Of a stretch of 417 nucleotides of DNA, positions 1-417 are shown piece after piece. The notes beneath the pieces are model-generated. The model was not told where the DNA came from. It did no database searches and worked only from the letters and a program-made list of their open reading frames with translations. A program made the position numbers and the translations under genes. This stretch comes from a phage. Numbering within the stretch: position 1 is the stretch's first letter; each line of letters begins with the position of its first letter. The stretch lies in the sequence record MW984355.1. One strand, given 5' to 3'.

Positions 1-42
1 TTTTCGCAATTTTCTTTAGTGGTACCTTTCTATTCTCACTCT
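1..42 (+). other. gIII: C-terminal part of the pIII signal peptide (...LVVPFYSHS); leader peptidase cleavage expected after codon 40-42 (Ser)
   Basis: Codons 19-42 read GTG GTA CCT TTC TAT TCT CAC TCT = VVPFYSHS, the known end of the pIII leader, with the silent changes that create a KpnI site in display vectors. Positions 1-15 read FSQFS instead of the expected LFAIP; see findings. Confidence 0.85.
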
Positions 43-417
43 TCTGATCCTGTTGCTTTGTCTTATTGGCTGGCTCGTGGTGGAGGTTCGGCCGAAACTG
101 TTGAAAGTTGTTTAGCAAAATCCCATACAGAAAATTCATTTACTAACGTCTGGAAAGACGACAAAACTTTAGATCGTTACGCTAACTATGAGGGCTGTCT
201 GTGGAATGCTACAGGCGTTGTAGTTTGTACTGGTGACGAAACTCAGTGTTACGGTACATGGGTTCCTATTGGGCTTGCTATCCCTGAAAATGAGGGTGGT
301 GGCTCTGAGGGTGGCGGTTCTGAGGGTGGCGGTTCTGAGGGTGGCGGTACTAAACCTCCTGAGTACGGTGATACACCTATTCCGGGCTATACTTATATCA
401 ACCTCTCGACGCTGCAC
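1..417 (+). CDS. gIII: Filamentous phage minor coat protein pIII (g3p), partial at both ends, with an N-terminal 12-mer display insert and GGGS spacer (recombinant fusion)
   Basis: Frame 1 is open across the whole window. Translation: FSQFSLVVPFYSHS | SDPVALSYWLAR | GGGS | AETVESCLAKSHTENSFTNVWKDDKTLDRYANYEGCLWNATGVVVCTGDETQCYGTWVPIGLAIPEN | EGGGSEGGGSEGGGSEGGGT | KPPEYGDTPIPGYTYIN... This matches the signal peptide end, N1 domain, glycine-rich linker and N2 start of pIII as I recall them. The four N1 cysteine codons (TGT at 109-111, 196-198, 226-228, 247-249) are at the expected positions. Not in the ORF track, probably because the frame has no stop inside the window. Confidence 0.93.
21..26. 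other. KpnI/Acc65I recognition site (GGTACC), engineered 5' library cloning site
   Basis: GGTACC at 21-26 inside the leader codons. Wild-type gene III has GTT GTT CCT here as I recall; M13KE-type vectors carry GTG GTA CCT. Confidence 0.85.
43..78 (+). other. Displayed random-library peptide insert, 12 codons, encoding SDPVALSYWLAR
   Basis: TCT GAT CCT GTT GCT TTG TCT TAT TGG CTG GCT CGT lies exactly between the leader end (..CACTCT) and the spacer GGTGGAGGTTCG. Every codon ends in T or G (NNK pattern), and the length is 36 nt. Confidence 0.88.
79..90 (+). other. Synthetic Gly-Gly-Gly-Ser spacer between the displayed peptide and mature pIII
   Basis: GGT GGA GGT TCG = GGGS immediately upstream of GCC GAA ACT (AET, the mature pIII N-terminus). 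The last codon overlaps the EagI site. Confidence 0.88.
89..94. other. EagI recognition site (CGGCCG), engineered 3' library cloning site
   Basis: CGGCCG at 89-94, spanning the spacer Ser codon and the Ala1 codon of mature pIII, as in M13KE-type vectors. Confidence 0.85.
91..291 (+). other. gIII: pIII N1 domain (mature residues 1-67; the TolA-interacting domain)
   Basis: AETVESCLAKSHTENSFTNVWKDDKTLDRYANYEGCLWNATGVVVCTGDETQCYGTWVPIGLAIPEN, with four Cys at the positions of the two N1 disulfides. Domain function is from established knowledge of g3p, not from the sequence. Confidence 0.9.
292..351 (+). repeat. gIII: Four tandem 15-bp units encoding the pIII glycine-rich linker between N1 and N2 (EGGGS EGGGS EGGGS EGGGT)
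   Basis: gagggtggtggctct (292-306), gagggtggcggttct (307-321), gagggtggcggttct (322-336), gagggtggcggtact (337-351). The two middle copies are identical; the outer ones differ at 2 and 1 positions. Confidence 0.95.
352..417 (+). other. gIII: N-terminal part of the pIII N2 domain (F-pilus binding), truncated by the window edge
   Basis: KPPEYGDTPIPGYTYIN matches the start of N2. The last 5 codons (LSTLH) do not match the expected PLDGT; see findings. Confidence 0.8.

Follow-up and report, generated by a model that had tools for sequence, protein, structure and literature searches.

The closest known counterpart of the DNA analysed here is the commercial Ph.D.-12 phage display library, which is derived from the vector M13KE by NNK mutagenesis and presents its peptides as N-terminal fusions to the coat protein pIII (PMC9697088). 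The vector offers KpnI and EagI as cloning sites (PMC4412080). In a deep-sequencing survey of the Ph.D.-12 library, valid reads were recognised by their GGGS linker and a variable cassette of 48 nt, with AETVESCLAKSH following the displayed peptide; G or T occupied every third position, and T was the more common of the two in the commercial library (PMC9697088). The naive library has a residue bias of its own, with Ser the most over-represented residue at position 1, Asp and Pro globally over-represented and Arg under-represented (PMC9697088).

We analysed a stretch of 417 nucleotides from a phage record (MW984355.1), referred to below as the window. It resembles M13KE/Ph.D.-12 in every feature that can be tested within it, namely the two cloning sites, the YSHS leader end, the 12 NNK codons, the spacer GGTGGAGGTTCG, the following AETVESCLAKSH and the −28 and −96 primer sites, and it shows no structural difference from that system; what sets it apart is a 12-mer of its own, absent from the searched literature, and errors at the read ends. 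The Ph.D.-7 and Ph.D.-C7C libraries have the same vector, leader, spacer and primer sites as this clone, but Ph.D.-7 carries 7 random codons and C7C an AC-X7-C design with flanking cysteines, whereas the clone has 12 codons and no Cys. Wild-type gene III (G3P) of M13, f1 and fd is about 98.5% identical at the DNA level to window positions 91–401; in comparison with it, the clone adds a 48-nt insertion, two restriction sites and the changes TCC>TCT and GCT>GCC. The window is therefore very probably a sequencing read of a recombinant M13KE phage, a clone from a random peptide library of the NEB Ph.D.-12 type, in which a cassette of 12 NNK codons plus GGGS sits between engineered KpnI/Acc65I and EagI sites at the junction of signal peptide and mature protein in gene III.

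A non-native insertion at the signal peptide junction

The feature at the centre of the analysis is the following.

43..78, plus strand: random 12-mer insert, 12 NNK codons encoding SDPVALSYWLAR; missing in wild-type M13 and in all Ff records

Read in frame, positions 43–78 comprise the codons TCT GAT CCT GTT GCT TTG TCT TAT TGG CTG GCT CGT, which translate to SDPVALSYWLAR. The insert is exactly 36 nt long, all 12 codons conform to NNK with the third positions T,T,T,T,T,G,T,T,G,G,T,T (9 T and 3 G), and the 12-mer contains no Cys. In-frame translation thus reproduced the coordinates, the peptide and the T/G third-position pattern exactly as the first-pass annotation of this DNA had given them.

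In the alignment with wild-type M13 gene III (NC_003287, gene III from 1579), positions 43–90 stand out as a clean insertion of 48 nt, with the last codon of the signal peptide before it and the first codon of the mature protein after it. Database comparisons gave the same picture. A megablast search of 50,697 phage records returned gene III of M13, f1 and fd at 97–99% identity, over window positions 88–411 only, and a sensitive blastn search of positions 1–100 against phage records matched the leader region alone. The window has matches in 33 Ff phage records, and in every one of them positions 43–87 are left uncovered. The exact 36-mer had no match in viral contigs, viral, metagenome and genome contigs contained neither an exact instance of the pattern leader-N{21,36}-spacer nor one of the spacer/EagI junction, and no PLSDB plasmid matched the window.

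The possibility that the 43–78 block is native or naturally acquired gene III sequence of a filamentous phage has a single point in its favour, the roughly 98.5% identity of the rest of the window to gene III of M13, f1 and fd. Against it, the 48-nt insertion falls exactly at the leader-peptidase site and between two engineered sites that the wild type lacks, the block is missing in all 33 Ff records with its exact 36-mer unmatched in viral contigs, and the cassette junctions are without a match in viral, metagenome and genome contigs. Instead of the natural Ff layout, in which the signal peptide is joined directly to AETVES in native codons, the window has the 48-nt insertion and four engineered substitutions. 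A native origin is refuted by the alignment with wild-type M13 gene III, and we assign it a negligible probability; the block is a non-native insertion. The first-pass annotation had raised the question of whether the block might belong to a reference phage genome, and we looked for this and found it native in none.

Engineered flanks and vector identity

The sequences on both sides of the insert carry the marks of a cloning vector.

1..42, plus strand: pIII signal-peptide coding region, 3' part, in its M13KE form (...VVPFYSHS), from the alignment with M13 gene III
21..26, no strand: engineered KpnI/Acc65I cloning site GGTACC; wild-type M13 reads GTTGTTCC, a difference of two substitutions
79..90, plus strand: GGGS spacer GGTGGAGGTTCG, a fixed part of the Ph.D. 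library cassette, by sequence match (PMC9697088)
89..94, no strand: engineered EagI cloning site CGGCCG, formed by the spacer codon TCG and GCC (91–93), where the wild type has GCT

Upstream of the insert, the change from GTT GTT CC in the wild type to GTG GTA CC creates GGTACC at 21–26, and the sequence TTCTATTCTCACTCT at 28–42 brings the leader to its end at ...FYSHS, with TCT at 40–42 in place of wild-type TCC and directly adjoining the insert. Downstream, GGTGGAGGTTCGGCCGAAACTGTTGAAAGT at 79–108 comprises the spacer, the EagI site and mature pIII, which starts with AETVESCLAKSH from position 91. We take these flank features to be those of the NEB M13KE map. The vector match rests on published primer and linker sequences together with the NEB map, as neither an M13KE reference nor a sibling clone turned up in the searched collections. 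Because the origin and lacZ-alpha, which M13KE carries in the intergenic region of its M13mp19-derived backbone, lie outside the window, M13KE is indistinguishable here from any other vector into which this cassette had been copied. The earlier proposal, a 12-mer randomised by NNK codons and displayed on a coat protein of the phage, finds support in these M13KE/Ph.D.-12 flanks (PMC9697088, PMC4412080).

Primer sites within the window point to the same vector lineage.

107..128, minus strand: −28 gIII sequencing primer site (GTATGGGATTTTGCTAAACAAC), exact match; the primer occurs in 7 phage-display papers
175..195, minus strand: −96 gIII sequencing primer site (GCCCTCATAGTTAGCGTAACG), exact match; the primer is found in PMC6769167 and PMC6294585

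Counted from position 78, where the random insert ends, the two sites lie at the expected distances of 28 and 96 nt downstream, and the reverse primer used for NGS in the Ph.D.-12 survey (PMC9697088) matches at 192–214. Two positions in this region differ from NC_003287: T121, through which mature residue 11 becomes Ser instead of Pro, and C195, which is silent. Since both are contained in the sequences of the −28, −96 and NGS primers, and Ser11 is also present in PDB 1g3p, they mark the vector lineage and are not specific to this clone.

The ends of the read

The window begins where a common M13KE forward PCR primer, TTATTCGCAATTCCTTTAGTG (PMC6769167), begins. Relative to that primer, positions 1–13 have one A deleted, one T inserted and one C>T change. 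In frame 1 these differences turn LFAIPL of the signal peptide into FSQFSL, and the stretch is probably an amplicon end with poor base calls. At the other end, positions 402–417 differ from M13 in that CCC is read as CC and an extra CT appears, giving a net +1 frameshift in gene III. A viable phage could not carry a frameshift in this essential gene, which argues for a base-calling error and not a mutation. The differences at both ends are almost certainly base-calling errors. The statement in the first-pass annotation that the peptide is the only clone-specific content of the window accordingly needs correction, as 1–13 and 402–417 also differ from the vector, almost certainly for this technical reason.

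The pIII protein downstream of the cassette

From position 91 onwards, the window encodes the beginning of mature pIII.

91..291, plus strand: pIII N1 domain, mature residues 1–67 (AETVESCLAKSH...IPEN), by Pfam PF05357 and PDB 1g3p
292..348, plus strand: glycine-rich linker G1 of pIII, (EGGGS)3EGGG, between N1 and N2, by a 15-nt tandem repeat and translation
349..417, plus strand: start of the pIII N2 domain (TKPPEYGDTPIPGYTYI...), by M13 alignment and 1g3p identity

The limits of N1 follow the g3p literature. The translation from 91 matches Pfam PF05357 (Phage_Coat_A) with E = 5e-28 and is identical to PDB 1g3p over 103 residues, starting at chain residue 1. As the identity begins at that residue, exactly 16 residues, the 12-mer and GGGS, stand ahead of the natural mature N-terminus.

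Tandem Repeats Finder (TRF) reported a repeat at 291–348 with a period of 15, 3.9 copies and 95% identity, a feature that Ff phages carry natively. On the minus strand, an 82-aa open reading frame (169–417) was considered as a gene and dismissed, because it runs antisense to the well-characterised gene III and through the Gly-rich repeat, whose composition probably accounts for it.

Third-position statistics of the insert

The weight of the NNK pattern depends on the codon usage against which it is judged. G or T occupies the third position in 63.5% of M13 gene codons and in 63.1% of codons in the native part of the window. Under M13 codon usage, the chance of finding G or T at all 12 third positions is 0.635^12 = 0.0043, and sliding a 12-codon window along the M13 genes yields such a stretch in 10 of 1855 cases (0.0054); in the native part of our window, the longest run of this kind is 7 codons. 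M13 is T-rich, and a null based on its own codon usage comes to about 1 in 200, roughly 20 times less improbable than 1/4096. The chance of about 1 in 4000 given in the first-pass annotation is therefore too small by a factor of approximately 20. The split of 9 T to 3 G is not significantly different from 1:1 (p = 0.15) and goes in the same direction as the T > G excess reported for the library (PMC9697088). Non-NNK codons in library clones, which the earlier annotation had named as a finding that would speak against it, do not appear in the published survey, where G or T stands at every third position. Taken alone, the signature is real and suggestive but not conclusive, and it is the vector flanks that provide the decisive evidence.

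These numbers also bear on the alternative that the 12-mer is a deliberately designed peptide, such as an epitope, a tag or a known ligand, cloned into M13KE via KpnI and EagI. M13KE is routinely used in this way, for instance for FLAG-TEV inserted by KpnI/EagI (PMC4412080), and if the designer had chosen codons ending in T or G, flanks and insert would look identical to what we see. With codon usage like that of M13, however, an NNK match in 12 of 12 codons would have a probability of only about 0.004. In addition, the insert is exactly 12 codons long and comes with the stock GGGS spacer, and neither SDPVALSYWLAR nor its 6- and 7-mers have a peptide match in searchable full-text literature. 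We consider a designed insert very improbable and retain the assignment to a random library.

Character of the displayed peptide

The literature search covered the full text of 7.7 million PMC papers together with bioRxiv, 8 million papers in all, in which the 12-mer SDPVALSYWLAR, three 7-mers and six 6-mers derived from it gave no peptide match; the few 6-mer matches were ordinary text, such as 'adjusted pvals'. The 12-mer is also absent from the text supplement of the Ph.D.-12 deep-sequencing survey. Its calculated properties are unremarkable, with a pI of 5.6 (near neutral), a GRAVY value of 0.17 (mildly hydrophobic) and 2 aromatic residues out of 12.

A peptide of this kind may be recovered for reasons unrelated to the panned target, through binding to plastic, blocker or capture reagent or through faster propagation. 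The clone has a Y-W pair within the hydrophobic stretch ALSYWL, and aromatic residues favour binding to polystyrene (Vodnik 2011, PMC6259164); moreover, Ser1, Asp and Pro are residues over-represented by phage biology. To compare it with known cases, we scanned the peptide with 24 regular-expression patterns, taken from Table 1 and the text of Vodnik 2011 (PMC6259164) with the addition of HH, WXW and WXXXW, which span binders of plastic, streptavidin, biotin, albumin, protein A, Fc and metal. None of the 24 target-unrelated patterns matched, including WXXW, WHW, FHXXW, HPQ, SS[IL], RTY and K[LV]WX[ILV]P, and this agrees with the earlier remark that the peptide has no HPQ or WxxW-like motif. 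The target-unrelated peptides SVSVGMKPSPRP and HWGMWSY and the WXXW plastic binders derive from libraries of the same type, and the peptide of this clone likewise contains some aromatic and hydrophobic residues; it differs from them in having no motif match, and at most 3 of its 12 residues are common to any peptide in the Vodnik 2011 list. Two further points weigh against a target-unrelated origin: the aromatic content is limited to 2 of 12 residues with a single Trp, and cases of propagation advantage depend on mutations outside the window, such as regulatory mutations or deletions elsewhere in the genome. Such an origin is possible, but we consider it unlikely.

The opposite case, in which SDPVALSYWLAR acts as a genuine and specific ligand or mimotope of the panned target that has yet to be published, appears somewhat less likely still. 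The peptide has Ser at position 1 and Arg at position 12. Its Ser1, its Asp and Pro content and the excess of T over G match the bias of the naive library, which suggests an ordinary library member. The clone, presumed in the first-pass annotation to be a biopanning output, resembles an unselected member of the library to the same degree and fits the library bias, and its sequence neither indicates nor excludes selection. We therefore concur with the first-pass annotation that the binding status of the peptide cannot be judged from sequence.

Discussion

The organisation of the window suggests how a recombinant M13KE clone of this type would display its peptide, and the route below follows from established knowledge of the vector. 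The fusion would be exported via the Sec signal peptide of pIII, and leader peptidase is expected to cut after ...YSHS, where Ser occupies positions −3 and −1. Cleavage would leave Ser1 as the free N-terminus, so that SDPVALSYWLAR-GGGS heads mature pIII, and the fusion should be present on all copies of pIII, about or up to five, at the tip of the phage. The displayed peptide would in this way be physically linked to its own coding DNA, and the two could be selected together by affinity. Seen from the library, SDPVALSYWLAR would be one arbitrary draw from about 10^9 members.

In practical terms, the window should be flagged as vector sequence of synthetic origin, lest it be mistaken for a naturally occurring phage variant. 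SDPVALSYWLAR could become interesting only together with its experimental context, that is, the target, the panning round and the sibling clones, and if it proved to be a true ligand, it would constitute a new reagent and not a new biological principle. As a laboratory construct from a commercial library, with an architecture that is fully explained, the clone matters little for biology.
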